DNA of 64,000 bases, taken from contig CAVYGQ010000001.1 in NCBI GenBank assembly GCA_963768175.1, forward strand, positions 840,717 to 904,716. The letters run 5' to 3'. Both the position numbers and the translations under genes were made by a program. Under the pieces are notes generated by a model, which saw only the letters and a list, made by a program, of their open reading frames with translations, had not been told where the DNA came from and did not search any database. Each line of letters begins with the position of its first letter. Within the stretch, counting starts at the first letter, position 1. Below are positions 2,885-54,403 of this stretch, piece after piece. The DNA comes from Candidatus Doudnabacteria bacterium (GTDB taxonomy: Bacteria; Patescibacteriota; Doudnabacteria; UBA920).

Positions 2885-3601
2885 TCAGAGGTTTGCTGAC
2901 GTGTGCACCGCTATTACGTCTTCGTCATTTTCCAGCTCCTGAAACAGCGCGTCAACTTTCAGTTTTTGCTCTTCGGTTAGGTCCGTGCCTTGGGAGCTTT
3001 CTTTAATAATCTCCGCTTGGGCGATTTTGGCGCCGGCCTTTTCCAGGACTTGTTTGATTTTGTTCAAATCCGTGGGCTTGGTGTAAACTTCCAAACCTTC
3101 TTCTGACTCGCGTACATCATCGGCCCCCGCATCTATAGCCGCCAATTCAATATCAGATATTTCTGCATCGCGTTCTACCAAAATTTGTCCCTTGGTGGAA
3201 AATTGCCACGCCACGCTCCCTTGTGCCCCTAAGTTGCCGCTGTGTTTGGAGAACACATGTTTGATGTCATTGGTTGTCCTGTTGGGATTATCGGTTGCCG
3301 CTTCCACCAAAAATGCCGTGCCAAATGGCCCGTAGCCTTCATAAACCACTTCTTTTACTGCGCCGGCCCCTTCGCCAAGCGCGTTTTTGATTGCCCTGTC
3401 TATATTATCATTCGGCATGCCTTGTGCTTTGGCGGAATCCACGACGCTCTTTAATTTAAAATTCGCTTCTGGGTTTCCACCCCCGCCTTCCTTAACGGCA
3501 ATGGAAATTTTTTTGGAAAATTTGGAAAACAGCAGTCCTTTTTTTTGGTCAAGGGCTCCCTTAGTTCTTTTGATTTGCGACCATTTACTGTGACCGGACA
3601 T
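2885..3601 (-). CDS. yebC: YebC/PmpR family DNA-binding regulatory protein
   Basis: MSGHSKWSQIKRTKGALDQKKG... conserved N-terminus, 238 aa. Confidence 0.85.
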   Translation of the reverse strand: MSGHSKWSQIKRTKGALDQKKGLLFSKFSKKISIAVKEGGGGNPEANFKLKSVVDSAKAQGMPNDNIDRAIKNALGEGAGAVKEVVYEGYGPFGTAFLVEAATDNPNRTTNDIKHVFSKHSGNLGAQGSVAWQFSTKGQILVERDAEISDIELAAIDAGADDVRESEEGLEVYTKPTDLNKIKQVLEKAGAKIAQAEIIKESSQGTDLTEEQKLKVDALFQELENDEDVIAVHTSANL

Positions 3602-3612
3602 AAATAAGTAAT

Positions 3613-3666
3613 GTAGCGCGCCGATTTATCGGCAACTTGAGACAGCCCATAAATGGGCATGCTACG
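3613..3666. repeat. Compound palindromic intergenic repeat (copy 1 of 2; second copy at 55585-55637)
   Basis: GTAGCGCGCCGATTTATCGGCA...AGCCCATAAATGGGCA(T/C)GCTAC. Two inner palindromes, GCCGATTTATCGGC and GCCCATAAATGGGC, sit inside a GTAGCG/CGCTAC outer stem. Both copies carry identical 22-nt and 16-nt blocks. Confidence 0.8.
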
Positions 3667-3672
3667 CTGAGA

Positions 3673-4458
3673 TTATTTAAATGACACTAATACCGTAAAT
3701 TCTCCTTTAATGGAAGGTTTTTCTTTTAAAACATCAGAAACCTGCATCGGCGTACCGCGGATAAACTCTTCGTGCATTTTGGTGATTTCGCGGGCAATGA
3801 CGATTTGCGATGACGGAAAGGCATTGGTAATATAGTTTAAGGTTTTTAAAATCCGTTCCGGGGATTCATAAAAAATTGCTGTGGCTTCGGCATCGGCCGC
3901 GCTCTGCAGCGCCGAAACGGTTTTTGCCGCGGTTTTTTGTAAAAAACCCAAAAACATAAATTTATCGGTCGGCAAACCGGAGGCTGAAAGCGCGGCAATG
4001 GCGGCATTGGCTCCCGGGATCGGGACAACGGCCACATTTTCTTTTATGCACTCGCGCACCAAGCGAAAACCAGGATCGGAAATCCCGGGTGTGCCCGCAT
4101 CGGTAATTAAACAGCCGTCTTGTTTGGCCAGCCGGCGCGCCAGCTCTTTTACAATTTGTTGTTCGTTAAATTCCGCGAACTGAATAATTGGTTTCGCTGA
4201 AATTGCGAGGAGTGCATCCCGCCCCGACTCGCCGTCTTCGGCGAGGCGGGCCGACGAAGCAATCCCGTCTTTGTTTGAGATTGCCGCGCCCTCAGATGCA
4301 TTCGGGCTCGCAATTTCTAGACGTTCAATGTATTGCAGCAGCCTCCTGCTATATCCTGGATTTTCCGCAATAACAAAACTGCACGATTTTAAAGTTTCAA
4401 TCGCGCGCAGGGTTATGTCCCCCAGATTTCCTATTGGAGTCGCAACGATATACAACAT
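3673..4458 (-). CDS. rsmI: 16S rRNA (cytidine1402-2'-O)-methyltransferase RsmI, with an in-frame insertion of about 40 aa
   Basis: MLYIVATPIGNLGDITLRAIETL and ITDAGTPGISDPG motifs. An extra block, LEIASPNASEGAAISNKDGIASSARLAEDGESGRDALLAISAKP, is encoded by a GC-rich palindrome at 4205-4311. Confidence 0.8.
   Translation of the reverse strand: MLYIVATPIGNLGDITLRAIETLKSCSFVIAENPGYSRRLLQYIERLEIASPNASEGAAISNKDGIASSARLAEDGESGRDALLAISAKPIIQFAEFNEQQIVKELARRLAKQDGCLITDAGTPGISDPGFRLVRECIKENVAVVPIPGANAAIAALSASGLPTDKFMFLGFLQKTAAKTVSALQSAADAEATAIFYESPERILKTLNYITNAFPSSQIVIAREITKMHEEFIRGTPMQVSDVLKEKPSIKGEFTVLVSFK
4205..4311. repeat. GC-rich palindromic element inserted in frame in rsmI
   Basis: Arms gcgaggagtgcatc and gatgcattcgggctcgc are imperfect inverted repeats. 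The element contains nested hairpins ccgcc...ggcgg and ctcgccgtcttcggcgag and has higher GC than the flanking sequence. Confidence 0.65.
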
Positions 4459-4487
4459 TAGAATTTTAAATTTAAAATTTTATATCC

Positions 4488-4766
4488 CTACCAGTTTTTA
4501 TCCGGCGCTTCCAAACCAAAAGCCGCTTCTATAAAATCGTATTCCGCCTTAAGCTTGTCGCGGTATTCTTCCAGTTCGTTTTTTTGCTCGCCTTCGGCCT
4601 CGTACCATTCGTCATAGGAATTTTTTAATTCGTCATCAATCTCCTGCAGTCTCGCGTAGGCTTCGGCTTCTCCCTGCGGGCCCTGCTCCGCCCATTCCTC
4701 GTAGCTCATGCCGAGCGTCTTTTTGTATTTATCATCGTATAGGCTTTGTATGTCTTCTTGGTCCAT
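4488..4766 (-). CDS. Hypothetical acidic protein (92 aa)
   Basis: An ORF rich in E, D and Y with no recognisable domain. Confidence 0.4.
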   Translation of the reverse strand: MDQEDIQSLYDDKYKKTLGMSYEEWAEQGPQGEAEAYARLQEIDDELKNSYDEWYEAEGEQKNELEEYRDKLKAEYDFIEAAFGLEAPDKNW

Positions 4767-4924
4767 AGAAAGTTATATGATACGGATATACGGATTAAAT
4801 ACTGATGATACGGATAATACAGATATCCATCAAGACGTTGCCTGACAGAATCCGTATTATCAGTTTCATCCGCATGTATCAGTATATCAGTATCTCCAAT
4901 TAGTTATTATCTCTACCTATTTTA

Positions 4925-4992
4925 CTCTAAATCTCCAAAAAAGAAAAACCCTCTATGTATTGCCAAGGCCGTCGGGCCTGTTTGGCAATAGA
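4925..4992 (-). terminator. Rho-independent terminator for the dipeptidase operon
   Basis: The long inverted repeat ccctctatgtattgccaa...ttggcaatagaggg is followed on the minus strand by a T run. Confidence 0.6.
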
Positions 4993-5212
4993 GGGTCTTT
5001 CCGAAAAGTCAAAAGAAGCTTTTTGTAAGCCGAAAGATTTACCTTGCGGCCCATCGCCTTATAAATAAAGGCGATATACATCCTGACGAATCAGGATTGG
5101 TTAAAAAACTTTTAGTTGTTTTTTATTTTGGTTTCTTCTGATGAAGAACTAACTTTTCTATACTAAGTATAGCAAATTTTTAGGCAGTTGTCTAGGGCCC
5201 TGACCCGGCATT

Positions 5213-6199
5213 TTATAGCCTGCTAACTATTTTTGCCACGTTTCCATACATAATGCCGTAAATTTCATCATCCGTTAGTCCTGCTATTTCCGAGAGCTGT
5301 TCCGCAATAACCGACAGTTTTCCAATCTCATCAAACTCTTCAAAGAGATGTTGGGCGTCAAGCCCGCCGAAATCGGTCCCGATTGCCGAATATTCTGTTG
5401 AACCGGTTATATCACCGGCTTGTTTGTATGTTTCTATATAATTTTTGAAAGTTGGGAAAAAAGGATTTGCTGGCGTGAACCCGACCACTCCGCCGCGCTT
5501 GGCGATTTCTTTAAGTAATTCGGGAGTGATTAACCGCTGTTTTTCCGAACCCAGGCCGGTGTGGGTGGTGACAATTTTATTATAGTTTCGTACGCGCTCC
5601 AAAATATCGGCAGTAGTTTTGTGGTTGGCATGGGCGGTGTCTATTATCATTTTCAGCTCAACAAGCCGGTCAATTACTTTTTTTCCAAGGTCGGTCAAGC
5701 CCCTGTTTGGATCGCCTGACGAACCTCCGCCAAGCAGGTTGTCGTGGGAGTAGATTGGCCCAACTGACCTGACGCCGCGCGCATACAATTCGTCAGCTAT
5801 ATCGGGCGCAGTAACAATATCCCCGCCTTCTAAATGCAGGATGATTTGTTCTTGGCTGTAAGGCTGATTTTGCAAGCGTAAGTCTTGCGGTCGTGTAAGT
5901 ACTTTAAAGTCTTCGGTTGATTGGTAGTAATCGATCAACCTATTATATTCGTTGCGCACGCCTGCCAATACAACTTCATTTCCGGTTAAGGCGGCTTGTT
6001 TTATCTCCGTATTTGCCCGGCGGTAGATGGTGGCAAAATGCAAGTCTAGCAGTCTTAAGCCTTCGCGCGGCAATTGTTTGCCTCGTTCTTTGGCATGGGC
6101 AAGTTCGGGGTTGTTTAAAATTTGGCACAGCCAGGGATTGAGCCGGTCTTGGTGGAAATCCGCAGCGCGAAAATTTTTACCTTCCTTGGTGTTTAACAT
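5213..6199 (-). CDS. Membrane dipeptidase, peptidase M19 (renal dipeptidase) family
   Basis: An M19-like region (GLTDLGKKVIDRLVELKMIIDTAHA) and a 328 aa length. Confidence 0.6.
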   Translation of the reverse strand: MLNTKEGKNFRAADFHQDRLNPWLCQILNNPELAHAKERGKQLPREGLRLLDLHFATIYRRANTEIKQAALTGNEVVLAGVRNEYNRLIDYYQSTEDFKVLTRPQDLRLQNQPYSQEQIILHLEGGDIVTAPDIADELYARGVRSVGPIYSHDNLLGGGSSGDPNRGLTDLGKKVIDRLVELKMIIDTAHANHKTTADILERVRNYNKIVTTHTGLGSEKQRLITPELLKEIAKRGGVVGFTPANPFFPTFKNYIETYKQAGDITGSTEYSAIGTDFGGLDAQHLFEEFDEIGKLSVIAEQLSEIAGLTDDEIYGIMYGNVAKIVSRL

Positions 6200-7141: not shown

Positions 7142-8601
7142 AAATTGTTAAAGGTAATGCTGGCTAAATCGTTGAAATTTATGGTTTTCTCGAGTTTTTT
7201 TGCGGGCGGGATATATTTGGACGAGATATAGTCGTAAATATCGGCGGCGCCGGTTTTAAAGAAGTCGCCATATTTCATACTCACCGCCGCTTCAAGATAC
7301 TTTGGACTTAAAGGCCCGTCACAAAATATATCATGCGCGTATAAAGCCTTAAGCTGTCCGTCAAAGCGCCTGAAAAAAAGCGCCATACCGGCAACCAGCC
7401 CGGAGGTGTCAATGTTTTTAATAAGCGGGATTTCTTCCATAAAGGCGGAATGTTCAAGCGTTTTTAGCCATGCATTTTTAAACAGGCTTAAATAAATTGC
7501 GGACCCGTAGCCGGTTAGCGGACGCACGCCGGAGTAAAAATTTAACATTGAAAAAATCGAAAACAGGCTCGGGTAAATTTCTTTTTCCGCTAGCTTCTCC
7601 ATTATAGAACCCTTGTCCATATGGATTTTAAGATGTTCAAATCTGCTGTCGGCGGGAATCAGATATTCTCCTTGAAGGTACATGCGTAAAGAACGAGGCT
7701 GCCCGGGGTACTTTCTCCAGAAAAAGTGGGTGCCCTTTCCTTCTCTTTCCCGCCAGGTGATTATAATTCCTCGAAAGTTTTCCAGTATTTGATCCCGGAA
7801 AGGCTTATCAAAATAAGCGGCGGTTATAAAATTGTCTTCTTTTAACAGTTCAAGCAGACATTGGGTAGTAAGTTCTTCCTGGGTTATATAGAGCAAGTCC
7901 GGCAAAGTGGGGCGGGAGGCCTCGGGAAACAACAGTGGCCAGGTTTCTTTCACAATGACGGTAATTTGGTCGGCGTAGTCTTTGCATCTGTCAAAATTGA
8001 TTGATGAAATAAAGGTGTTAAAATCTTGTAAGAACTTTTGTTCTCCTTTAGTGAATTCATGCCATTGGTGGCTGATTTTAAGTCTGGCGACAAAATCAAA
8101 ATCTCTTTTTGTAATATAATAAGAGCAATGTTCCCGTTCGGCTACGCTAAAAAGGGGAACGTGCTTTCCATGCAGACAAAAGCCGCTTTTCCCGAAATAA
8201 TTATTGGGGGGCACATCGCCGCTGGAGACGACGATGGTGGCGTCCGCTTTTTCCTTTTGGAAAAATTTATTGACGCTGCTTATAACGTTGGCAGACAATA
8301 AAAACGGGTGGTTTAGTATCTGGTGATGGTCGGCAATATTGAAAGCAAGGGAATTTGCGAAGTTAATTTTTAATTTTTCTTTTGCATTGCCGCCGAACAA
8401 CCCTTCAAATTTACGGGTGATTTTATTTTTTAGCAGCTCCTGCCGTTTAAGGTGTAGAGCCGGAGTTTTAAAATTATATAGCCCGTCCGAAAACTCCCTG
8501 ATGCTTAATGGCATTTCAAAATATTCCCGGTAAAGCGGCGCATAACGGGTAATTTGGGAGATTATTTGGTCGCGCTCTTTTAAAATTTTAGCTATTTCCA
8601 T
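7138..8601 (-). CDS. Hypothetical protein of 487 aa with no recognised domain
   Basis: A long uninterrupted ORF, coupled to the ATP-grasp gene by a 4-nt overlap. Confidence 0.5.
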   Translation of the reverse strand: MEIAKILKERDQIISQITRYAPLYREYFEMPLSIREFSDGLYNFKTPALHLKRQELLKNKITRKFEGLFGGNAKEKLKINFANSLAFNIADHHQILNHPFLLSANVISSVNKFFQKEKADATIVVSSGDVPPNNYFGKSGFCLHGKHVPLFSVAEREHCSYYITKRDFDFVARLKISHQWHEFTKGEQKFLQDFNTFISSINFDRCKDYADQITVIVKETWPLLFPEASRPTLPDLLYITQEELTTQCLLELLKEDNFITAAYFDKPFRDQILENFRGIIITWREREGKGTHFFWRKYPGQPRSLRMYLQGEYLIPADSRFEHLKIHMDKGSIMEKLAEKEIYPSLFSIFSMLNFYSGVRPLTGYGSAIYLSLFKNAWLKTLEHSAFMEEIPLIKNIDTSGLVAGMALFFRRFDGQLKALYAHDIFCDGPLSPKYLEAAVSMKYGDFFKTGAADIYDYISSKYIPPAKKLEKTINFNDLASITFNNL

Positions 8602-11377: not shown

Positions 11378-12154
11378 CTATTGGTGTTTCAAAAACGGTT
11401 TTAATATTGGCGCGTATAAATCTTTTTTCGGCGGAATAACCAATTTGTGATATAAATCCTTTTTGGTAAACTTAACAAATTTCGCCCCTCTTAGCACCAC
11501 CACCGGCGTTTGCTCGCCGCCTTCGCCCATTATCAGCGCTCCCAAGTCCGCCAGCGTGTCCACCAAATTGCGCTGGGTGTATTTTAATTTGCGTTTAAAA
11601 ATATCTTTTTGTCCGCGGTAATCAAACAGTGGCTTTAACCCCCAAAAGCCGATGCTTACCCCTTGCGTTCCCCATCTTAGCGGCGTGGTGCGGCTGTCCA
11701 CGGCCACGGCCGCCAGTTTTTTTGTGCCAAATTTTGTTTGGTATCTTTTGACAATTTGTTTAAGTAATAAATTAACATTCTTCGGCCAAAGAATAAAATA
11801 ACCATTGCCGTTGCTTTCATCTATGCCGGCCGAAGGTATAAGCGTGTAGTCTTTAATGGTCAAAATAATTTCCGAATCGCCAATCATGTAAGCCGGCAAG
11901 CTAAAATCGGCTTCTTTTTTTACAAGCTGGTGTTTTTGGTTGTAGCGTGCCGATTTATCCGCCGTCGCTGAAGCTTTGGCGGACAAGTCGGCCTTCTCGA
12001 TTTTCACGCATCTGCCCTGATGAATCGCCAAAATCTTGGAAGCAATCAACAAAACATCGCCTTCTTTAAGCTTAGGCAGGCGTTTGTCCAGCTCTTGCAA
12101 AATGTCGTCCTTTGGCGGCAGGAACTTGCGGGTTTTTATGGGAATGAATTGCAT
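11378..12154 (-). CDS. CofE-like (F420-0:gamma-glutamyl ligase family) protein
   Basis: IPSAGIDESN and LLIASKILAIHQG regions resemble the F420_ligase domain. The family assignment is tentative. Confidence 0.45.
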   Translation of the reverse strand: MQFIPIKTRKFLPPKDDILQELDKRLPKLKEGDVLLIASKILAIHQGRCVKIEKADLSAKASATADKSARYNQKHQLVKKEADFSLPAYMIGDSEIILTIKDYTLIPSAGIDESNGNGYFILWPKNVNLLLKQIVKRYQTKFGTKKLAAVAVDSRTTPLRWGTQGVSIGFWGLKPLFDYRGQKDIFKRKLKYTQRNLVDTLADLGALIMGEGGEQTPVVVLRGAKFVKFTKKDLYHKLVIPPKKDLYAPILKPFLKHQ

Positions 12155-24247: not shown

Positions 24248-24359
24248 CTTCGCTAAAGCTACGAAGTGCGAGCAACTTAGTTGGTATGCTCATTTTAATA
24301 GTTAACTGTAAATTTTAGAAGCGAAGAAGTGCCCTACGTAGCCTTGGCGAAGTAGGGCA
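24248..24359. repeat. Inverted repeat CTTCTTCGC/GCGAAGAAG plus hairpin GCCCTAC-GTAGCCTTGGCGAAG-TAGGGC (conserved-loop REP-like motif)
   Basis: Loop motif CGTAGC(C/T)TT(G/A)GCGAAG occurs 5 times in the window: at 24248, 24338, 35448, 51493 and 61948. Confidence 0.7.
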
Positions 24360-26621: not shown

Positions 26622-26695
26622 TGGAGCGGCTAACGGGAATCGGACCCGTCCCCCAACCTTGGCAAGGTCGCGTACTACCACTATACTATAGCCGC
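26622..26695 (-). tRNA. tRNA-Gly (anticodon GCC)
   Basis: The reverse complement folds as GCGGCTA..CGACC-TTGCCAA-GGTTG..TAGCCGC-T-CCA. Confidence 0.8.
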
Positions 26696-26720
26696 GTAAA
26701 ATTATTATATCAGATTTTTT

Positions 26721-26796
26721 TGGTGCCGGGCCCCAGAGTTCGAACTGGGCACGCCTGCCTCTTCAGGGCAGCGCTCTACCGATGAGCTAGCCCGGC
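26721..26796 (-). tRNA. tRNA-Phe (anticodon GAA)
   Basis: The reverse complement is GCCGGGCTAGCTCA...CTGCC-CTGAAGA-GGCAG...CCGGCACCA. Confidence 0.85.
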
Positions 26797-26938
26797 GTAA
26801 TAAATTTGTACTGTTTCTTAACTCGTCGTCTAACTCCTCGCTCGAGACACTCGCCTCGCTTTAACGTTCGTGGTTGCTTGAGGCCGTTCTACGGCCGAAA
26901 CCACGAGCGAGCTTTGACGTTAGTCAAAACGAGTTGAG

Positions 26939-27014
26939 TGGTGGGCAATGTAGGGATTGAACCTACGACCCCTTCCGTGTAAAGGAAGTGCTCTACCACT
27001 GAGCTAATTGCCCC
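26939..27014 (-). tRNA. tRNA-Val (anticodon TAC)
   Basis: The reverse complement is GGGGCAATTAGCTCAGTGGTAGAGC..CTTCC-TTTACAC-GGAAG..CCCACCA. Confidence 0.85.
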
Positions 27015-43455: not shown

Positions 43456-43989
43456 ATCTAAGCTATTGTAGCACTAGTTATGGCTTGCGTTCAAATGATA
43501 AATTGTATCATTATCCTTTATCTTTTATCCTTGACAACCTTCGCTTGGTAAAGGATAATGGATAAAAGATTAAAGATAAATTTATTATGTCCAAAAAGCA
43601 CAAAAGAAGCGATTACCAAATACCCCAGCAAGCCGGTATTTCCCATGCCGCGGAATACCGCATTATTAAGTTTGATTTGGTAAAAGTGGTAATTTTAAAC
43701 CTTGTTTATTTAGCGGTTATTTTGTCGTTGTATTTTGGCAACCAGCATACGCATTTTTTGGATAACTGGTTTGCGAAACTTCTCCATTTCTAGTTTATCT
43801 TTGAACAACGGGCATCATTGGTCTTAGAAATATTTCAATCCAATGGTGCCCGTTGTTACCTTTTGTTATAGACGCCCCATAATGGGCGGGTTTTGTCATA
43901 TATGATATAAAGTGGATAATTTTGGTTGACCAAAGGGCAAAAATTTGCTAAAATTGTAATACATATATCACATACGATAGTTTCCCTTT

Positions 43990-44075
43990 GGCGTCATCCT
44001 GAGCGTAGCGAAGGATCTCATTAAAGAAAGAGATTCTTCACCCTTCGGATGCTACTTCAGGTTCAGAATGACGCC
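43990..44075. repeat. Palindromic element GGCGTCATCCTGAGC...TTCAGAATGACGCC (copy B, intergenic, upstream of murA)
   Basis: Terminal inverted repeats plus an internal palindrome, GAAGGATCTC..GAGATTCTTC. Confidence 0.8.
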
Positions 44076-44094
44076 TTAGGAAAGAAAATATTAT

Positions 44095-45648
44095 ATGCAA
44101 AACCTTATAAAGGATCAGCAGAAAATCGGCCAGTTTATAGCCGAAGTCCGTGAGCTTAAAGGCTTTACCCAAAGCCAGTTTGCCAAAAGCTTAAAAACCA
44201 GCCAGTCAGCCGTAGCCAGGATGGAAAGCGGCCAGCAAAACTTAACTACAGAGATGCTGGCTAAGATTAGCGCAGTTTTGAACCATGAAATTATTACGTT
44301 GGCCGACAAGTCGGTAAATTTTAAAATAGAAGGCGGGCGGAAACTTTCGGGAAGGGTCGCGGTTAATACTTCCAAGAATGCCGCGGTGGCGCTGTTGTGC
44401 GCTTCTTTGCTTAATGAAGGTAAAACTATTTTTAAGAATGTGCCTAAAATAGAGGAAGTCTACCGGGTAATTGAAGTTTTGGTCAGTCTTGGCGTCTCGG
44501 TAAAATGGCAGGGCGCGGATGTGGAAATTTTGCCGGGCAAAAAAATTACCATAAATAAAATAGACAAAGAAGCCGCGGTTAAAACCAGAAGCGTTCTTAT
44601 GCTGCTTGGGCCTTTGGCTCATATTCTTCCCGCTTTTAACCTGCCTTTGGCCGGCGGCTGCAAACTGGGCGAACGGACCGTGAGGCCGCATTTGTTTGCT
44701 TTGGAAAAGCTTGGAGTTAAAATTCAGACCCATCATGACCATTACGCCGTAAGCTCGGCTAAAGCTCCCGCCAAAGGCGGATCCGCCTCCGGCGGAAAAA
44801 CCGCGGAGGTAGTGCTTTACGAAATGGGTGACACAGTGACGGAAAACACGCTTATGGCCGCGGCAAAAATAAACGGCGTGACCACCATCAAGCTGGCCTC
44901 TTCCAATTACATGGTGCAGGATTTATGTCATTTTTTGCAAAGTTTGGGCGTAAAAATTGAAGGCGTGGGTACCTCCACCTTAAAAGTGCATGGCAAACCG
45001 CACATTAACCAGCGTGTGGTCTTTTATTTAAGCGAAGACCCCATAGAAGCCATGCTGTTTTTGTCTTTGGCTGTCACCACAAATTCTTCCATAACCGTTG
45101 AGCGCTGCCCCATAGACTTTTTGGAGCTGGAACTGTTGAAATTGGAAAAGATGGGGTTTAAGTACCGGATTATTAAGCGTTATAAAAGCCATAACGGTAT
45201 TACCAATTTGGCAGATATTAAGACTTTCCCGTCTAAATTAATCGCGCTGGAAGAAAAAATCCACCCGTTGACGTCCTCGGCCGGAATTAATATAGATAAC
45301 CTGCCGTTTTTTGTGCCCATTGCCACCCAGGCCAAAGGCACCACGCTGATTCACGACTGGGTTTACGAAAATCGCGCTATTTACTATTTGGAATTAAATA
45401 AGCTGCGGGCCAATATAATTTTGGCCGACGCCCACCGCGTTTACATAGACGGCCCGACCGAACTTAAAGCAGGCGAAGTCATTTGTCCCCCTGCCCTGCG
45501 CCCGGCCGCGATAATTCTAATTGCGATGTTAGCCGCCAAAGGCACCTCTATTCTCCGCAACGTTTATTCCATAAACCGCGGCTATGAGAATTTGGTGCAG
45601 CGATTACAGAAGCTCGGAGCCAAGATCGAAATGATACATGGCATGTAA
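44095..45648 (+). CDS. murA: UDP-N-acetylglucosamine 1-carboxyvinyltransferase fused to an N-terminal XRE-type HTH domain
   Basis: Residues 1-65 form an HTH_3 domain (IGQFIAEVRELKGFTQSQFAKSLKTSQSAVARMESGQQNL). The MurA core follows (KLSGRVAVNTSKNAA...). An in-frame AKGGSASGG cassette is also present. Confidence 0.85.
   Translation: MQNLIKDQQKIGQFIAEVRELKGFTQSQFAKSLKTSQSAVARMESGQQNLTTEMLAKISAVLNHEIITLADKSVNFKIEGGRKLSGRVAVNTSKNAAVALLCASLLNEGKTIFKNVPKIEEVYRVIEVLVSLGVSVKWQGADVEILPGKKITINKIDKEAAVKTRSVLMLLGPLAHILPAFNLPLAGGCKLGERTVRPHLFALEKLGVKIQTHHDHYAVSSAKAPAKGGSASGGKTAEVVLYEMGDTVTENTLMAAAKINGVTTIKLASSNYMVQDLCHFLQSLGVKIEGVGTSTLKVHGKPHINQRVVFYLSEDPIEAMLFLSLAVTTNSSITVERCPIDFLELELLKLEKMGFKYRIIKRYKSHNGITNLADIKTFPSKLIALEEKIHPLTSSAGINIDNLPFFVPIATQAKGTTLIHDWVYENRAIYYLELNKLRANIILADAHRVYIDGPTELKAGEVICPPALRPAAIILIAMLAAKGTSILRNVYSINRGYENLVQRLQKLGAKIEMIHGM
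44773..44796. repeat. 24-nt palindromic cassette AAAGGCGGATCCGCCTCCGGCGGA in frame in murA
   Basis: Identical to the copies in hss and murF. Confidence 0.85.
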
Positions 45649-45713: not shown

Positions 45714-48209
45714 ATGGCGGAAACAAACAACAATTTGGGTTTATCATCAGCCGAAGCCGCTAGCAGATTAAGGCAGTACGGCTATAACGAAATTGCGGAA
45801 AGCAAAAGGCTATCCGGGCTTTTGGCTTTTTTGTTAAGGTTCCGCAATCCGCTGGTGCTGATTTTGGTCTTTGCGGCTACGATATCAGCTGTAACCGGGG
45901 ATCCCGTCAGTGCGCTGATTATCATCAGTATTGTACTGCTGTCCGTTATCTTAGATTTTTTTAATACCTACAAATCCCAAAAAGCCGCGGAAGAGCTGAT
46001 AGAAAAAGTGGAAATTACAGCCGAGGTATTGAGAGGCGGCATAGTGACTCCCCTGCCGCTGCGCTTGATTGTGCCCGGAGACGTGGTGGAACTTGAGGCC
46101 GGAGACGTAATTCCCGCAGACGGCAAAATTTTAAGCGCCAAAGATTTATTTTTGAACGAATCTTCGCTAACCGGCGAATCTTTTCCCGCGGAAAAGCAGG
46201 AAGGCTTGCCTATTTTTTTGGGAACCAACGTGGTTACCGGCACTGGCCGGATGCTGGTGGAAGTTACGGGTAAAAAAACCAAGTTCAGCAAAATCGCGGA
46301 AAGTCTGGAAGCGCCGGAAAGGCCTACGGATTTTGACCGCAGCATAAAAGATTTTAGCTACTTAATTATGAAGATAACTTTTGTCTTGGTTATCTTTATT
46401 TTTTTGGTTAACGCCATACTCAAAGGCAGCACTTATATTTTGGAGTTGTTTTTGTTTGCCGCGGCCTTGGCCGTGGGCTTGACGCCGGAGCTTTTGCCCA
46501 TGATTATTACGCTTAATTTATCCAAGGGCTCTTTGGCCATGTCCAAGCACGGCGTAATTGTAAAAAAACTATCGGCCATCCAAAACTTTGGCGCTATGGA
46601 TGTATTGTGCACCGATAAAACCGGCACGTTGACGGAAGACAGGATTGAACTGGTCAAGTACGTGGACGCCGAGGGCAAGCCGGATGAAAACATTTTTAAG
46701 TACGCTTACCTTTCCAGCAGTTTCCGCAGCGGCTTTAAGAATCCGCTGGATGTGGCTGTAAAAAATTTCAAGATGTTTGATATTGGCGGCAAATCCGCCT
46801 TCGCTGAAGCTTCGGCGGATGACTCGCTATCAAATATATTAATGGGAGTCAAAAAAATAGACGAAATCCCCTTTGATTACCGGCGCAAGCGCGATTCCAT
46901 TATCGTGAAAACTTCTCAAGGCTATGAGCTTATTTCCAAAGGCGCGCCTGAAGAAATGTTTGAGACCTGCAGTTTTTATAGCCAGATGGGTAAAAAACTC
47001 ACCCCTACTATAGCCAAAAAATTGGAAAAAGAATATCAGGCTTTAAGTGCCGACGGCTTTAGGGTTTTGGCTGTGGCCTGCAAGACGCTTCCGGAAAAAA
47101 CGGCATACGAAAAAGAAGACGAAAGGGATTTGGTTATATTGGGCTTTATTGCTTTTTTGGATCCGCCCAAAAAGAGCGTGACCGAAACCCTGCGGACTTT
47201 GGAAAATTATGGCATCGCCATAAAAGTTATTACCGGCGATAACGAAATTATTACCAAAAAAATCGCTCAGGAAATTAATTTGCCCGTTTTGGGCAGTTTG
47301 ACCGGGGCAGAGATAGAAAAATTGACCGATCGGCAGCTAGCAATAGATGCGGAGAAAACTACAGTTTTTGCGCGCGTTACGCCGGAACAAAAAAAGCGCA
47401 TTATTTTGGCTTTGCAAAAAAATAAACACGTAGTCGGGTTTATGGGCGATGGTATAAATGACGCGCCGTCGCTTAAGACCGCGGACGTGGGCATTTCGGT
47501 TAACAACGCGGTGGACGTGGCCAAGGAATCGGCCGATTTAATTTTATTGCACAAGAGTTTAAAGGAGCTGGCTTTAGGCGTTATCCAGGGCCGCAAAACT
47601 TTTGCCAATACTTTAAAGTATTTAATGATGGGTTTGAGCTCAAATTTCGGCAATATGTTTTCCATGGCCGGAGCATCCATGTTTTTTCCGTTTTTGCCCA
47701 TGCTGCCGGCCCAGATTTTGCTAAATAATCTGCTGTATGACGGCTCGCAGTTTGTCATTCCGCTGGACAATGTGGATGAGCAGGACATTGCCAGGCCACG
47801 GCAAATGAAGATCCATTTTTTGCGCAGATTTATGGTGGTTTTTGGCATTTTAAGTTCGGTGTTTGATTTTGTGACGTTTTTAGTGTTAACTTTTGTCTTC
47901 CATTATACCAACCACTACTTCCAGACCGGCTGGTTTATTACCTCTTTTGCCACGCAAATTTTAGTGGTATTTGTTATCCGCACCAAGCAGGTGCCGTTTT
48001 TCAAAAGCAAGCCGGCTAAGTCCTTAGTTATTTCCGTGTTTAGTTTTTTGGCTTTAGCCCTGCTTTTGGCCTTAGGCCCGATAAAAAATATCTTCGGCTT
48101 TGCCCCGCTTTCGCTGGCCATGGTTTTAAGCGCTTTCCTTATTACCCTGCTCTATTTAATCTGTATTGAGTTCGCCAAAAGCAAATTTTACCAATATGTT
48201 TCGGAATAA
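45714..48209 (+). CDS. Cation-transporting P-type ATPase (MgtA-like)
   Basis: DKTGTLT, TGDN and GDGINDAPSL motifs, 831 aa. Confidence 0.8.
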   Translation: MAETNNNLGLSSAEAASRLRQYGYNEIAESKRLSGLLAFLLRFRNPLVLILVFAATISAVTGDPVSALIIISIVLLSVILDFFNTYKSQKAAEELIEKVEITAEVLRGGIVTPLPLRLIVPGDVVELEAGDVIPADGKILSAKDLFLNESSLTGESFPAEKQEGLPIFLGTNVVTGTGRMLVEVTGKKTKFSKIAESLEAPERPTDFDRSIKDFSYLIMKITFVLVIFIFLVNAILKGSTYILELFLFAAALAVGLTPELLPMIITLNLSKGSLAMSKHGVIVKKLSAIQNFGAMDVLCTDKTGTLTEDRIELVKYVDAEGKPDENIFKYAYLSSSFRSGFKNPLDVAVKNFKMFDIGGKSAFAEASADDSLSNILMGVKKIDEIPFDYRRKRDSIIVKTSQGYELISKGAPEEMFETCSFYSQMGKKLTPTIAKKLEKEYQALSADGFRVLAVACKTLPEKTAYEKEDERDLVILGFIAFLDPPKKSVTETLRTLENYGIAIKVITGDNEIITKKIAQEINLPVLGSLTGAEIEKLTDRQLAIDAEKTTVFARVTPEQKKRIILALQKNKHVVGFMGDGINDAPSLKTADVGISVNNAVDVAKESADLILLHKSLKELALGVIQGRKTFANTLKYLMMGLSSNFGNMFSMAGASMFFPFLPMLPAQILLNNLLYDGSQFVIPLDNVDEQDIARPRQMKIHFLRRFMVVFGILSSVFDFVTFLVLTFVFHYTNHYFQTGWFITSFATQILVVFVIRTKQVPFFKSKPAKSLVISVFSFLALALLLALGPIKNIFGFAPLSLAMVLSAFLITLLYLICIEFAKSKFYQYVSE

Positions 48210-48284: not shown

Positions 48285-48524
48285 TTATTTTTTTATCAGT
48301 TTTAACTTTTTTATCCGTGGCCACTTTTTTATTTCCGCCTCGCGCTTAAGCGCCTTGCCCCAGCTCTTGAATTTTTCATGGTAAACAATTTTTCCGCCGC
48401 CGTGGGCGATTACATATTTGGAACCTTTACCGGAATTGTGTTTTTGCTCCCGCTTTTTTAAATCCTTGGCGCTGCCGGAATATAGCGTGCCGTCTTTGCA
48501 TTTTAGGATGTAGAAATAGAACAT
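48285..48524 (-). CDS. GIY-YIG nuclease-family small protein (UPF0213-like)
   Basis: FYFYILKCKDGTLYSGSAKDLKKREQKH. Confidence 0.65.
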   Translation of the reverse strand: MFYFYILKCKDGTLYSGSAKDLKKREQKHNSGKGSKYVIAHGGGKIVYHEKFKSWGKALKREAEIKKWPRIKKLKLIKK

Positions 48525-48570
48525 GTCTTTACTTAAGTTCGGATTATAGCTAAAATTATAGAGATTTACT

Positions 48571-48602
48571 GGGCCTATAGTAAAGTGGTATTACGCGGCA
48601 TT
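48571..48602 (+). other. tRNA-like 5'-half fragment (a diverged duplicate of the tRNA-Ala 5' half)
   Basis: gggcctatagtaaagtggtattacgcggcatt compared with the intact gggcctatggtccagtggtaagacacggcatt. Confidence 0.5.
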
Positions 48603-48639
48603 TTCACCCCGTCACTAAATTGCATACAATACAAATGCT

Positions 48640-48713
48640 GGGCCTATGGTCCAGTGGTAAGACACGGCATTCGCATTGCCGGGACGCGAGTTCGATTCTC
48701 GCTAGGTCCACCA
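48640..48713 (+). tRNA. tRNA-Ala (anticodon CGC)
   Basis: G3:U70 pair, anticodon arm CGGCA-TTCGCAT-TGCCG, CCA encoded. Confidence 0.75.
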
Positions 48714-48743
48714 GCGTTTAGTGACGGGGCGAGTTGCTGAGGC

Positions 48744-48771
48744 GGGAGTTCGATTCTCCCTGGGTCCACCA
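48744..48771 (+). other. tRNA-like 3'-half fragment (T-arm, acceptor and CCA)
   Basis: gggagttcgattctccctgggtccacca. The inverted repeat ccccgtcactaaa/tttagtgacgggg brackets the intact tRNA. Confidence 0.5.
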
Positions 48772-48944
48772 TTTGACTTCGTTTCAGCAAGTTGAAACTT
48801 CGCTTATGGTTTTCGACCATATTACCGACGAATGTTTATACTTAGATAAAGTCGAATGTCTTGAGCGAGCGAAGCGAGTCGAAAGGCACTCACTCTCGTG
48901 GCCTTCGGCCAAATAATTCCCCCGATAAGGGGTTTTATCGTCTT

Positions 48945-49415
48945 ATGTTAAAAATTGAAATAATCGCTTTAGGAAAATTCAAGGAAAAGGCTTACAGGGA
49001 TCTGGAAGCCGAGTTTTTAAAGCGCTTGTCCCCCTTTGCCAAAATTAAAGTTATTGAACTGCCGGAAATCGGTTACGGCAAGAACCAGGATTTGGGAAAA
49101 ATTAAACAGCAGGAAGCGGAAAAAATAGTTAAACAATTGCCGGACGGCGGGGTAATAATTTTGCTGGAAGAAAAGGGAACATTGCGCAATTCCAAGGATT
49201 TTGCCGGTTTTTTAGAGCGGGTTGGCGGCTTGGGCAAAAAATTGGTTTTTGTCATCGGCAGCGGTATTGGTCTGCACGAATCAATCCGCCAATACAGCAA
49301 CTACACCATTTCCCTGTCCCCTCTTACTTTCCCGCACAATATGGCCAGGATCATTCTTGAGGAGCAGATATACAGAGCGTGTACCATTTTGTCCGGGAAA
49401 GACTATCATAAGTAG
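48945..49415 (+). CDS. rlmH: 23S rRNA (pseudouridine1915-N3)-methyltransferase RlmH
   Basis: The SPOUT fold (MLKIEIIALGKFKEKAY...VFVIGSGIGL). Confidence 0.75.
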   Translation: MLKIEIIALGKFKEKAYRDLEAEFLKRLSPFAKIKVIELPEIGYGKNQDLGKIKQQEAEKIVKQLPDGGVIILLEEKGTLRNSKDFAGFLERVGGLGKKLVFVIGSGIGLHESIRQYSNYTISLSPLTFPHNMARIILEEQIYRACTILSGKDYHK

Positions 49416-51485: not shown

Positions 51486-51515
51486 TGCCCTACGTAGCCT
51501 TGGCGAAGTAAGGGC
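51486..51515. repeat. REP-like hairpin GCCCTAC-GTAGCCTTGGCGAAGTA-AGGGC abutting the tRNA-Ala(GGC) 5' end
   Basis: The same loop motif as at 24338 and 35448. Confidence 0.7.
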
Positions 51516-51585
51516 CTGTAGTATAATGGTAATACGGATCCATGGCATGGATTAGTCGGGGGTCCGATTCCCCCCAGGTCCACCA
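51512..51585 (+). tRNA. tRNA-Ala (anticodon GGC)
   Basis: G3:U70 pair, anticodon arm GATCC-ATGGCAT-GGATT, CCA encoded. Confidence 0.75.
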
Positions 51586-52819: not shown

Positions 52820-54403
52820 ATGGACTTGTTTGTTCCAAAATTTATCCAATACCAATTATACCTGCTCCAGCTGGAAAATTATGAGCTGGGAAGGTATTGG
52901 AAATTGCTTATAAAAAAGGGAGTTTTCCCTAAAAAAAGCCAACCTTTGCGCAAAGAGCTGGTCTGGACCGCTAAAGCTCGGGCGTTAATGCTTATGGCTG
53001 TGGCCCTGCATGGTTTGGTGGTCGTTTTGGTTGGGCTTATGGTTTTAACTTTAAAGCCGGGCATAGATAACTTTTTTACCACAATAATTTTGGCGGTATT
53101 AATTTTGTTGCCGTTTTATTTTGTTTTTTTCAGTCTGGCTTTGTTAATCCTTAAGCCTTTGGACACTCTGGTAAAACAAAGCCTTGTGGCTAAAGCCAAA
53201 ACCAAGCTGGCTGGATTGCCTGATGTCAAGATAATCGGCGTTGCCGGCAGTTACGGCAAAACTACAATGAAGGAAGTGTTGAGGGCAGTGCTAAGTGCTA
53301 AGTTCAAAGTGCTAAGTACGCCGGAGAGCATAAACACGCCGGTGGGGATTGCCAGATGGATTATAAATAAAATAACGGACGAAACCCAAATTCTGATTGT
53401 AGAAATGGGGGAGCATTATGAGAAAGACGTTAAAGAAATTTGCGATATAGCAAAACCCGACATCGCGGTGGTTACCGGCATTAACGAATCCCACTTGGAG
53501 CGGATGAAAAAAATGGATACGGTTATTGCCACAATTTTTGAAATCGTGAGTAACGCCCAGCCCGGCGCGGCTATTGTGCTAAACGGCGATGATCGCAGGG
53601 TTATGGAGAATTATAAAAAATTTGTCTGGCCAGACCATCGGCTGGAATTTTTTACAAAAAATCCCGGCAGTGAAAAGTGTAAAGTGAAAAGTGCAAAGTT
53701 TAACACAGACAAGCTGTGTTGGAATTTAGAGATTGATGATCTTGGCTCGGTAGAACTGGATTTACTTGGGGAATACGCGTTGGGCGACGTTGACGCGGCC
53801 GTGAAAATTGCCAAAAGTTTGGGTATGAGCAATGAGCAAATTATCGCGGGGATCAAAAATATCAAGCCCGTGGAGCACAGGCTCCAGCCGATAAAGTCTG
53901 CCACGAATGTTTTGGTAATAGACGACAGTTACAACGGCAATTCCGACGGAGTAGTGGAAGCCATAAAAGTTTTGTCGCGCTTTTCCGCCAAAGGCGGATC
54001 CGCCTCCGGCGGAGAAGGCCGCCGGAAGATTTATATCACTCCCGGGCTGGTGGAAATAGGCAAAAGTTCCGCCGATATTCATCGCAGTATTGGCAAACAG
54101 CTGGCGGACGTTGCGGATGTGGTTATTTTGATAAAAAATAGCGCGACGGGGTTTATTGAAGAGGGAATCCTCTTAGGGCGTCATTCTGACCCTGAGCGGA
54201 GCGAAGGGGAAGAATCTCAAACTAAGGATAAAGAGATCCTTCGTCCCTCGGATGCACTCGGGGCTCAGGATGACGCCGCTGGTAAGAGACCAAGAATTAT
54301 CTGGTTTAATTCCGCCTTGGAAGCGTACGCGGGGCTAAAAGACATTTTAAAACCCGGGGATGTAATTTTGTTTCAGAACGATTGGGGAGACCAGTATTTG
54401 TAA
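52820..54403 (+). CDS. murF: UDP-N-acetylmuramoyl-tripeptide--D-alanyl-D-alanine ligase with an N-terminal TM extension and two in-frame repeat insertions
   Basis: Mur ligase ATP-binding motif GVAGSYGKTTMKE. Two in-frame inserts are present: the KGGSASGG cassette at 53990 and a palindromic element of about 100 nt at 54177-54277. Confidence 0.85.
   Translation: MDLFVPKFIQYQLYLLQLENYELGRYWKLLIKKGVFPKKSQPLRKELVWTAKARALMLMAVALHGLVVVLVGLMVLTLKPGIDNFFTTIILAVLILLPFYFVFFSLALLILKPLDTLVKQSLVAKAKTKLAGLPDVKIIGVAGSYGKTTMKEVLRAVLSAKFKVLSTPESINTPVGIARWIINKITDETQILIVEMGEHYEKDVKEICDIAKPDIAVVTGINESHLERMKKMDTVIATIFEIVSNAQPGAAIVLNGDDRRVMENYKKFVWPDHRLEFFTKNPGSEKCKVKSAKFNTDKLCWNLEIDDLGSVELDLLGEYALGDVDAAVKIAKSLGMSNEQIIAGIKNIKPVEHRLQPIKSATNVLVIDDSYNGNSDGVVEAIKVLSRFSAKGGSASGGEGRRKIYITPGLVEIGKSSADIHRSIGKQLADVADVVILIKNSATGFIEEGILLGRHSDPERSEGEESQTKDKEILRPSDALGAQDDAAGKRPRIIWFNSALEAYAGLKDILKPGDVILFQNDWGDQYL
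53990..54013. repeat. 24-nt palindromic cassette AAAGGCGGATCCGCCTCCGGCGGA in frame in murF
   Basis: Identical to the copies in hss and murA. Confidence 0.85.
54177..54277. repeat. Palindromic element GGCGTCATTCTGA...CTCAGGATGACGCC (copy C), inserted in frame near the murF C-terminus
   Basis: It encodes GRHSDPERSEGEESQTKDKEILRPSDALGAQDDAA and keeps the reading frame. Confidence 0.85.

Follow-up and report, generated by a model that had tools for sequence, protein, structure and literature searches.

The window analysed here is a 64,000-nt stretch of the genome of a Candidatus Doudnabacteria bacterium (contig CAVYGQ010000001.1, positions 840,717 to 904,716, forward strand), within which a complete tRNA-Ala(CGC) gene (48640–48713, on the plus strand like every feature of the nest described below) lies between the two halves of another tRNA-Ala gene. 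We consider it likely that this nest is an acquired replacement cassette seated inside the dead shell of the resident tRNA-Ala(CGC) gene. The cassette comprises 131 nt (48603–48733) and runs from a TTCA junction through an inverted repeat, a leader, tRNA-Ala(CGC), a trailer and the second repeat arm to a CGAG junction; it contains no open reading frame (ORF), and 74 of its nucleotides belong to the tRNA, the non-tRNA part amounting to about 57 nt. An outer tRNA interrupted by an insert with an inner tRNA was among several possibilities raised in an earlier note on this DNA, and it is the one favoured by the data: the outer shell folds, and relatives carry intact alleles of the outer type.

Architecture and folding of the nested gene

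The inner gene, with G3:U70 and an encoded CCA, is identified as tRNA-Ala(CGC) by ARAGORN and by Rfam (RF00005, 61.7 bits against a threshold of 29), in agreement with the earlier note. Upstream of it, the 5′ half of the shell (48571–48602) corresponds to tRNA positions 1–33 and supplies the acceptor strand GGGCCTA, the D arm, the anticodon-stem strand CGGCA and U32 U33; the likeness to the inner gene already noticed there is recovered by a repeat search as a direct repeat (48569–48602 against 48638–48671, 82%). The 3′ half, previously given as 48744–48771, in fact extends over 48734–48771 (84% against 48676–48713) and corresponds to positions 38–76, with U38, the anticodon-stem strand TGCTG, the variable region AGGC, a T arm of GGGAG TTCGATT CTCCC, the acceptor strand TGGGTCC, A73 and CCA. 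Between the halves, the cassette opens with the left junction TTCA (48603–48606), unchanged in all nests found, followed by the left arm of the inverted repeat (CCCCGTCACTAAA, 48607–48619), the leader (TTGCATACAATACAAATGCT, 48620–48639), the inner tRNA, the trailer GCG (48714–48716, as read from the sequence), the right arm (TTTAGTGACGGGG, 48717–48729, located by repeat search and nest alignment) and the right junction CGAG (48730–48733). The last takes the place of the resident anticodon CGC and A37, is the same in all five insertions of the cassette type found in the window (type B), and pairs with the left junction as U.G, U-A, C-G and an AxC mismatch. The 13-nt inverted repeat that had been seen to flank the intact copy is a perfect core, invariant in six distinct nests, of a 16-nt repeat with 94% identity (48604–48619 / 48717–48732), or of 17 nt when one wobble and one mismatch are counted. 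The leader differs among nests, and in its 3′ part AAATGCT complements AGCGTTT (A76 with the trailer); these segments vary yet remain complementary, as AAAUGCU/AGCGUUU in the window and AAAUGUU/AACAUUU in its relative L001, with one double-sided change.

A promoter-like site of the resident gene (TTTACT-17-TAAAAT, 48528–48556), found by consensus scan and of putative function, lies 15 nt 5′ of the shell and is kept in relatives, the motif block ctttact...gctaaaattat also occurring 5′ of the tRNA in L006 and L001. Within the nests no internal promoter is conserved. Compared with L001, the window leader carries a 5-nt duplication giving rise to a TACAAT box, and the resulting promoter-like TTTTCA-18-TACAAT (48601–48630), which ends 9 nt 5′ of the inner tRNA, is not conserved in the other nests.

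In the minimum free energy (MFE) fold of 48562–48771 (210 nt; −86.3 kcal/mol, z = −4.5, with none of 200 shuffles as good), an outer acceptor stem GGGCCUA/UGGGUCC containing G3:U70, a D arm, an anticodon stem CGGCA/UGCUG and a T arm enclose a long central rod. The outer halves, which the earlier note had been unable to fold, are thus seen as a cloverleaf, and deletion of the middle at eight hand-built junction variants led ARAGORN to call a 74-nt tRNA in 8 of 8. The anticodons of these variants are only CGA, UGA, UUA or UUC and never NGC, so that the shell, its anticodon lost, cannot decode alanine codons. As a control, each tRNA was removed together with 5–69 nt upstream and 3–59 nt downstream and the remainder searched for a foldable outer tRNA: 235 variants gave one for tRNA-Ala(CGC) in the window, none did so for the other 11 window tRNAs except for two matches due to a neighbouring gene, and among 51 tRNAs of the loci fetched for comparison the tRNA-Ala(CGC) nests alone were positive. 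The nest arrangement is not a product of chance, and within the window and the fetched loci tRNA-Ala(CGC) is the only tRNA gene to show nesting. Even in its intron mode, ARAGORN calls the inner gene as the sole intact tRNA of the flagged stretch, an outcome that the earlier note would have counted towards a chance resemblance and that we judge to reflect a limit of the predictor.

A rod of the same structure is predicted in all six nests when the arms are folded with the cargo reduced to its acceptor stem. Beginning at the shell anticodon stem, it passes a 2x1 internal loop in which U32 U33 face U38, then the three junction pairs UUC/GAG and the AxC mismatch, and continues into 13–15 further pairs, a predicted quasi-continuous helix of about 22 bp. 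In the alignment of the six nests all 13 repeat pairs are unvarying and the shell anticodon stem covaries. Pairing in the cargo stems is complete (100%), and five of their pairs have changed on both sides, a pattern to be expected of functional tRNAs. The inner tRNA-Ala(CGC) is presumably a functional gene.

The cassette in relatives and in other resident genes

Related genomes, whose comparison had been proposed in the earlier note, were sampled as contigs carrying the closest homologues of the P-type ATPase encoded upstream; they probably belong to Doudnabacteria within Patescibacteria and keep the gene order ATPase...GIY-YIG...tRNA...rlmH. Two of them, L006 (ATPase 80% identical) and L004 (85%), have one ordinary tRNA-Ala(CGC) each, of the outer type and with the anticodon arm ...CGGCA TTCGCAT TGCCG..., which identifies the shell as the resident gene. 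L001 (87%), as well as L008 and L015 of the same lineage, carries the nest as in the window with identical junctions, and the contigs L016 and L017 stop short of the tRNA. An exact-sequence look-up of the window RlmH and ATPase proteins returned no record. As read from this comparison, resident nucleotides 34–37 (CGCA) are replaced by the TTCA...CGAG cassette. Since the window groups with L001 in the ATPase tree and both leaders contain ATACAAATG, a single insertion in a common ancestor suffices for this clade. The segment formed by promoter and tRNA (window 48528–48771, L001 8270–8560, L004 9813–9990, L006 4800–4918) is oriented between the GIY-YIG gene and rlmH in L001 and L004 oppositely to the window and L006; this conflicts with both the ATPase tree and nest status, suggesting that the segment was inverted more than once or exchanged.

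The neighbouring GIY-YIG gene (48285–48524), which the earlier note had brought into connection with the nest through homing endonucleases, encodes 79 aa with the catalytic domain alone (residues 1–71). It is kept, at 83–84% identity, beside the intact alleles of L004, L005 and L006 and is absent near the nests of L010, L012, L013 and L014, which lie in another genomic context. We rejected it as a homing endonuclease or agent of the insertion because it has only the catalytic domain and does not track nest presence.

Further nests were found by a metagenome scan for the repeat pair at a spacing of 80–110 nt, and the cassette recurs with identical junctions and at constant orientation and position in at least three further resident tRNA-Ala(CGC) genes. 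In a second genomic context, where the tRNA lies 3′ of a small membrane ORF beside DUF4446, bactofilin and DAGK genes, L012 (shell A2) and L013 (shell A3) contain a type B cargo tRNA identical to that of the window at 70–73 of 74 positions. Their junctions match those of the window (left GCA TTTTCA CCCCGTCACTAAA; right TTTAGTGACGGGG CGAGT TGC), and the three shells are mutually different in D arm, anticodon stem and T stem. L018 and L019, with the same flanks and a DUF4446 protein 82% identical to that of L013, have an uninterrupted tRNA-Ala(CGC) with the loop TTCGCAT that equals the L013 shell at all 70 shell positions, and L022–L024 have an intact gene like the L012 shell, including its unusual TCCGATT T loop. 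Between L018 and L013, CGCA gives way to TTCA...CGAG with no target-site duplication, no duplicated core common to both junctions and no co-conversion of the shell. As the cassettes of L012 and L013 are far closer (98%, 119/122) than their shells (83%) or DUF4446 proteins (55%), the cassette is much younger than the divergence of its hosts and entered each resident gene separately.

These comparisons bear on the view that the nest is a one-off local rearrangement or partial duplication without mobility, its likeness elsewhere reflecting common descent. A single ancestral event would explain the window and L001; however, inner tRNA and shell disagree at 12 of the 67 positions that can be compared and the former is not derived from the latter, the same insert sits in unrelated shells and is far more alike than its hosts, and L013 and L018 represent presence and absence on an identical shell. 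Simple loss, moreover, cannot account for the intact alleles, because precise excision of TTCA...CGAG does not regenerate CGCA. We regard this explanation, and with it the partial duplication entertained in the earlier note, as very improbable.

The location of tRNA-Ala(CGC) itself varies. In L012, L013, L018 and L022 it follows the DUF4446/small-membrane-ORF module by 2–5 nt, and the same module in the window (43587–43793 and 43794–44094) is followed by a hairpin only, without a tRNA, so that the gene occupies different loci in different Doudnabacteria. Two of these contigs also have a free-standing ORF within a Leu-Val-Phe-Gly tRNA cluster about 2–3 kb from the tRNA-Ala locus: in L022 one with a faint LAGLIDADG_3 match (4468–5160), and in L013 one with a GHFDGDG motif and no Pfam match (3374–3889). 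The equivalent cluster of the window (26622–27013) has no such ORF.

Alternatively, the nest could descend from a larger integrative element, such as a prophage, island or transposon, which brought a tRNA-Ala into the anticodon loop and was later deleted down to the 131 nt now lying between attL and attR. Integrases classically target the anticodon loops of tRNA genes, a large serine recombinase abuts the 3′ end of the nest in L008, and our pattern search could not detect long forms. We nonetheless think such an origin unlikely: every case is the same compact unit of 122–131 nt in at least five independent insertions, nucleotides 34–37 are replaced rather than duplicated, with no duplicated core common to the junctions, and the repeats have inverted rather than direct orientation. 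Outside the nests, the repeat has no copy in the window within two mismatches beyond chance and, two unrelated matches aside, none among 36 loci, and phage, plasmid and viral collections contain neither the cassette nor its cargo tRNA. The earlier note's suggestion of an integration or excision scar accordingly holds in the loose sense that the nest is an insertion, and fails in that the locus has no att-type duplication and no integrase. The lone 17-mer match in those collections (L037, 1130–1146) lies inside a coding region and is a chance one. Two loci fit the repeat pattern without a tRNA and are probably unrelated, namely L009 (1461–1574), a palindrome whose arms of about 50 nt enclose a structured core of about 90 nt, the contig having no ORFs, and L011 (455–575), rich in GCGATCGC and of cyanobacterial appearance. 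The L008 recombinase (3951–5498, minus strand; 515 aa, Resolvase + Recombinase + Zn_ribbon_recom) lies outside the nest, and its position beside the same nest in L001 is taken by an unrelated 267-aa ORF (7446–8249); these differing neighbours suggest that insertions of other kinds also concentrate at the 3′ end of the shell.

A second cassette type occurs in the L010, L014 and L026 group, where the innermost tRNA-Ala(CGC), designated type C, differs from type B in 15 of 71 positions and does not encode CCA; it is flanked by identical 13-nt repeats and the identical TTTTCA left junction. Here 3′ halves are stacked, each preceded by a trailer, a repeat (decayed in some) and a junction. Four such halves follow one another in L014. 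The first belongs to the functional C gene; next comes a B-type half with the junction CGCAT, then a C-type half whose preceding repeat is decayed and whose junction is CGAGT, and lastly a decayed half preceded by an intact repeat and the junction CAAGT. Three halves are present in L026 and L033 and two in the L010 group, and as the adjacent TrmB proteins of these multi-layer strains are 89–96% identical despite the differing layer counts, turnover appears to be fast. At these loci the stop codon of the upstream ORF abuts GGAAGCGGCA, and with most 5′ halves gone (absent in L026, not covered in L014), nesting is deduced from the 3′ side and the junction signatures. Going by these layers, invasion of the gene recurred and left stacked relics. 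Relic 3′ halves also lie downstream of the intact gene in L018. In relic shells the T loop is interrupted between TTCGA and ATT by GC-rich hairpins of 22 to about 65 nt, and the variable region by one of about 48 nt; these insertions differ between close strains (L010 6640–6690; L026, reverse strand of 3517–3760; L014 120–175 and 300–345; L034; L035).

Two contigs of one JGI sample break within the nest (L002 ends at 8392; L015 starts in the nest, 44–159), as a chimeric join of reads from two tRNA-Ala alleles might predict. Such an assembly artefact is scarcely credible given that the full nest is contained in a 949-kb contig, a 38-kb JGI contig, a GTDB metagenome-assembled genome, a 104-kb contig and a 26-kb contig, as well as in at least eight ENA/JGI contigs of the L010 group from different assemblers and samples, the NCBI, JGI and ENA sources being independent; nor would a chimera produce 13-nt inverted repeats. 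Because the JGI contigs break at the internal repeats of tRNA halves, short-read assemblies may instead under-represent nests.

A proposed mechanism of serial replacement

Beyond its acquisition, the cassette may represent a dedicated and previously undescribed class of element, a selfish 'gene-replacing' hairpin cassette that targets the anticodon arm of a single kind of tRNA gene, swaps the anticodon for itself and survives by carrying a working copy of the gene it kills. Our confidence in this wider reading is evenly balanced, and equally so in its two further parts, namely that tRNA-Ala(CGC) of Doudnabacteria is serially overwritten, B and C cassettes alternating and leaving nested fossils, and that a mobilising nuclease/ligase or recombinase measures from the anticodon stem and cuts after 33 and before 38, on single-stranded DNA or RNA. 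In the model we propose, the whole nest would be transcribed from the resident promoter as one RNA, in which the repeat, continued by the junction pairs and the shell anticodon stem, would form an RNase III-type processing stem presenting the inner pre-tRNA. The inner tRNA would then be freed by RNase P and 3′ trimming, possibly following an RNase III-type cut in the rod, and would assume the function of the destroyed gene, the shell halves remaining as debris. As a full replacement gene is carried, insertion would be harmless, which could allow a selfish element to persist in a tiny genome.

Spread of the cassette would be horizontal, site-specific and non-autonomous, depending on a factor acting in trans. 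The cassettes have a single target (33/38 of tRNA-Ala(CGC)), one orientation, invariant repeats and exchangeable cargo, features that resemble intron homing more closely than transposition, though without a ribozyme or endonuclease. The junction tetranucleotides travel with the cassette, TTCA always on the left and, on the right, CGAG with type B and CGCA or CAAG with type C. The cassette ends at the base of the rod, spaced from the anticodon stem like 33/34 and 37/38 of a normal tRNA, and from this stems our preferred guess of an enzyme that would recognise the anticodon-stem hairpin together with the cassette hairpin and swap the segment between 33 and 38 on a hairpin, cruciform or single-stranded DNA. 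The main alternative would be that the anticodon loop is broken and then mended from incoming cassette DNA by way of the conserved CGGCATT / TTGC microhomologies, and a swap at the RNA level followed by reverse transcription would be possible at the cost of more assumptions.

Several observations weigh against replacement by a cassette. The window shell differs from the ancestral type, as found in the intact tRNA of L006 and L004, by six transitions (one of them in the 5′ half), all of which preserve pairing and hint at residual constraint on the shell fold; the right junction of L014 and L026 retains CGCAT, so that precise removal would restore the anticodon arm; and multi-layer loci stack 3′ halves only, their matching 5′ halves being deleted or off the contig. 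Travelling junction tetranucleotides with no target-site duplication fit no textbook scheme of transposition or integration, and a Pfam search of 50 window ORFs returned no transposase, integrase or homing endonuclease as mobilising enzyme, no such gene being conserved beside the nests. The sample amounts to about six distinct nests, and the scan pattern would have missed diverged repeats and longer, possibly autonomous, forms. Tyrosine-recombinase, Tn916-type coupling-sequence, IS200/IS605 and target-duplication schemes were each considered, and none yields TTCA on the left with CGAG on the right in independent insertions. A derivation of the window shell changes from the tRNA-Ala(GGC) at 51512–51585 was likewise rejected on comparison.

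The first of these observations would also suit a genuine intron, whereby the cassette would be spliced by an unknown bacterial activity and one gene would yield two functional tRNAs, the outer and the inner. G3:U70, CCA and a flawless cloverleaf are all retained by the shell, the boundaries lie exactly at the helix base with a 5′ exon ending in U33 and an insert ending in G, the 3′ exon in L014 and L026 still begins with CGCAT, and group I introns are common in tRNA anticodon loops of Patescibacteria (PMC13011429). Yet all B-type nests are without an anticodon, and any splice would place CGA, UGA, UUA or UUC on a body of alanine identity. No group I or group II match is found, a non-tRNA part of about 57 nt is too short for a ribozyme core, and the junctions do not accommodate a bulge-helix-bulge (BHB) motif. 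Decay of older shells is unchecked, their 5′ halves being lost and their T and variable loops acquiring insertions, and a single ordinary gene suffices in relatives. An intron is therefore, in our estimation, quite improbable, and a dead shell with a replacement inside it remains the reading we prefer.

Apart from the nest, small GC-rich palindromic repeats of several families occur in the window, some of them in frame in protein genes (46788–46844; 44768–44799; 53985–54016; 54231–54280; and at 11957, 23881, 24330, 32502, 35441, 44028, 51486 and 61946). In the P-type ATPase one copy accounts for an insert of 19 aa that all 14 closest homologues lack, others encode 'KGGSASGG' in MurA-like and MurF-like genes, and those at 24330 and 51486 directly adjoin tRNA genes. 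Their presence in window genes suggests that this lineage mobilises hairpins. The MurA-like gene (EPSP_synthase fold, 44095–45648) has an N-terminal HTH_3 DNA-binding domain, a fusion kept in L001 and L016.

If confirmed, the cassette would represent a third solution to the problem of occupying an essential-type gene without harm, in that the mobile element brings a whole spare gene, in contrast to introns and inteins, which splice out, and to integrative elements, which rebuild the end of the cut gene. It would imply that tRNA genes turn over by horizontal overwriting even in 1-Mb genomes, would explain odd half-tRNA debris near tRNA genes, and would demonstrate that nested genes escape standard tRNA finders unnoticed. 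A sequence- and structure-specific enzyme, possibly useful for site-specific insertion, is indicated by the strict target (33/38 of one isoacceptor) together with the invariance of the 13-bp repeat, and the stacked layers would provide a readable fossil record of invasions in close strains, whose dynamics could be tested in metagenomic time series.

Comparison with known systems

Known systems share features with the cassette but fail in their defining ones, and a search of the full-text literature returned neither a tRNA gene nested in a tRNA gene nor a cassette replacing the gene it disrupts; on these grounds, and for a small set of nests gathered with a narrow search pattern, we rate the architecture and its logic as new. 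A group I intron is marked by a conserved core (P3–P8) recognised by covariance model and a length of about 200 nt or more. An Rfam search of 48300–49000 at E ≤ 10 for group I introns or other non-tRNA RNA families returned only tRNA and noise. The group I boundary rule, by which the 5′ exon ends in U and the insert in G, fits the L014/L026 type as U33|UUCA...GGGG|C, a match that is compatible with such introns and not specific to them. Group I introns do occur in bacterial tRNA anticodon loops, those of Patescibacteria included (PMC13011429), and the cassette is like them in its anticodon-loop site, single copy, fixed orientation, lack of target duplication and patchy distribution among relatives. 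It is unlike them in having no ribozyme core and in replacing the anticodon, so that the exons are not restored and a replacement gene stands in for splicing.

In archaeal and eukaryal tRNA introns the splice sites are marked by the BHB motif, consisting of a helix, a 3-nt bulge, a 4-bp helix, a 3-nt bulge and a helix. The predicted junction of the nest instead has 3 bp between a 2x1 internal loop and an AxC mismatch, followed by 13 bp, without paired 3-nt bulges, and no EndA splicing endonuclease is encoded among the 50 ORFs scanned in the 64 kb of the window, part of a 949-kb genome. Archaeal split and intron-containing tRNAs cited in PMC10714607 include split tRNAs in Nanoarchaeum, a tri-split tRNA in Caldivirga and transposing BHB introns in Thermoproteales, with which the nest shares halves zipped by complementary sequences of 12–14 nt, a break in the anticodon loop and evidence for movement of the intervening sequence between tRNA genes. 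It differs from them in its bacterial host, with no BHB and no known splicing endonuclease, in having both halves in one gene, and in the complete tRNA inside.

Islands and prophages integrate in tRNA genes through attP/attB recombination by tyrosine integrases and carry a copy of the displaced tRNA segment. Like them, the cassette targets an anticodon loop with a symmetric stem, brings tRNA sequence so that the gene persists, and leaves stacked 3′ fragments; unlike them, it is about 125 nt long, carries a whole tRNA rather than a 3′ part, has inverted repeats in place of a direct att repeat, lacks an internal integrase, leaves no duplicated core, and results in a functional gene nested in a dead one.

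Miniature inverted-repeat transposable elements (MITEs) and palindromic elements such as those of Rickettsia, which the GC-rich palindromic repeats of the window resemble, are similarly short, non-coding and trans-dependent, with terminal inverted repeats that form a hairpin. The cassette has such repeats (13/13, or 16 nt at 94%), but no target-site duplication and, within the window and the 36 loci, no dispersed copies, being present once per genome region at a single strict target in fixed orientation and with a functional gene as cargo. Against the IS200/IS605 single-strand elements (PATE), which insert 3′ of a fixed target of 4–5 nt without duplicating it, in one orientation and with a separate subterminal hairpin at either end, the comparison is mixed: the cassette follows CATT, without duplication and in fixed orientation, but its ends pair with each other, nucleotides 34–37 are lost, and no TnpA is seen. 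Finally, in twintrons and nested transposons, as in the multi-layer loci described here, repeated insertion into an earlier copy or target gives rise to concentric layers, with the difference that the layers of the cassette are generations of one housekeeping gene, each killed by the next.

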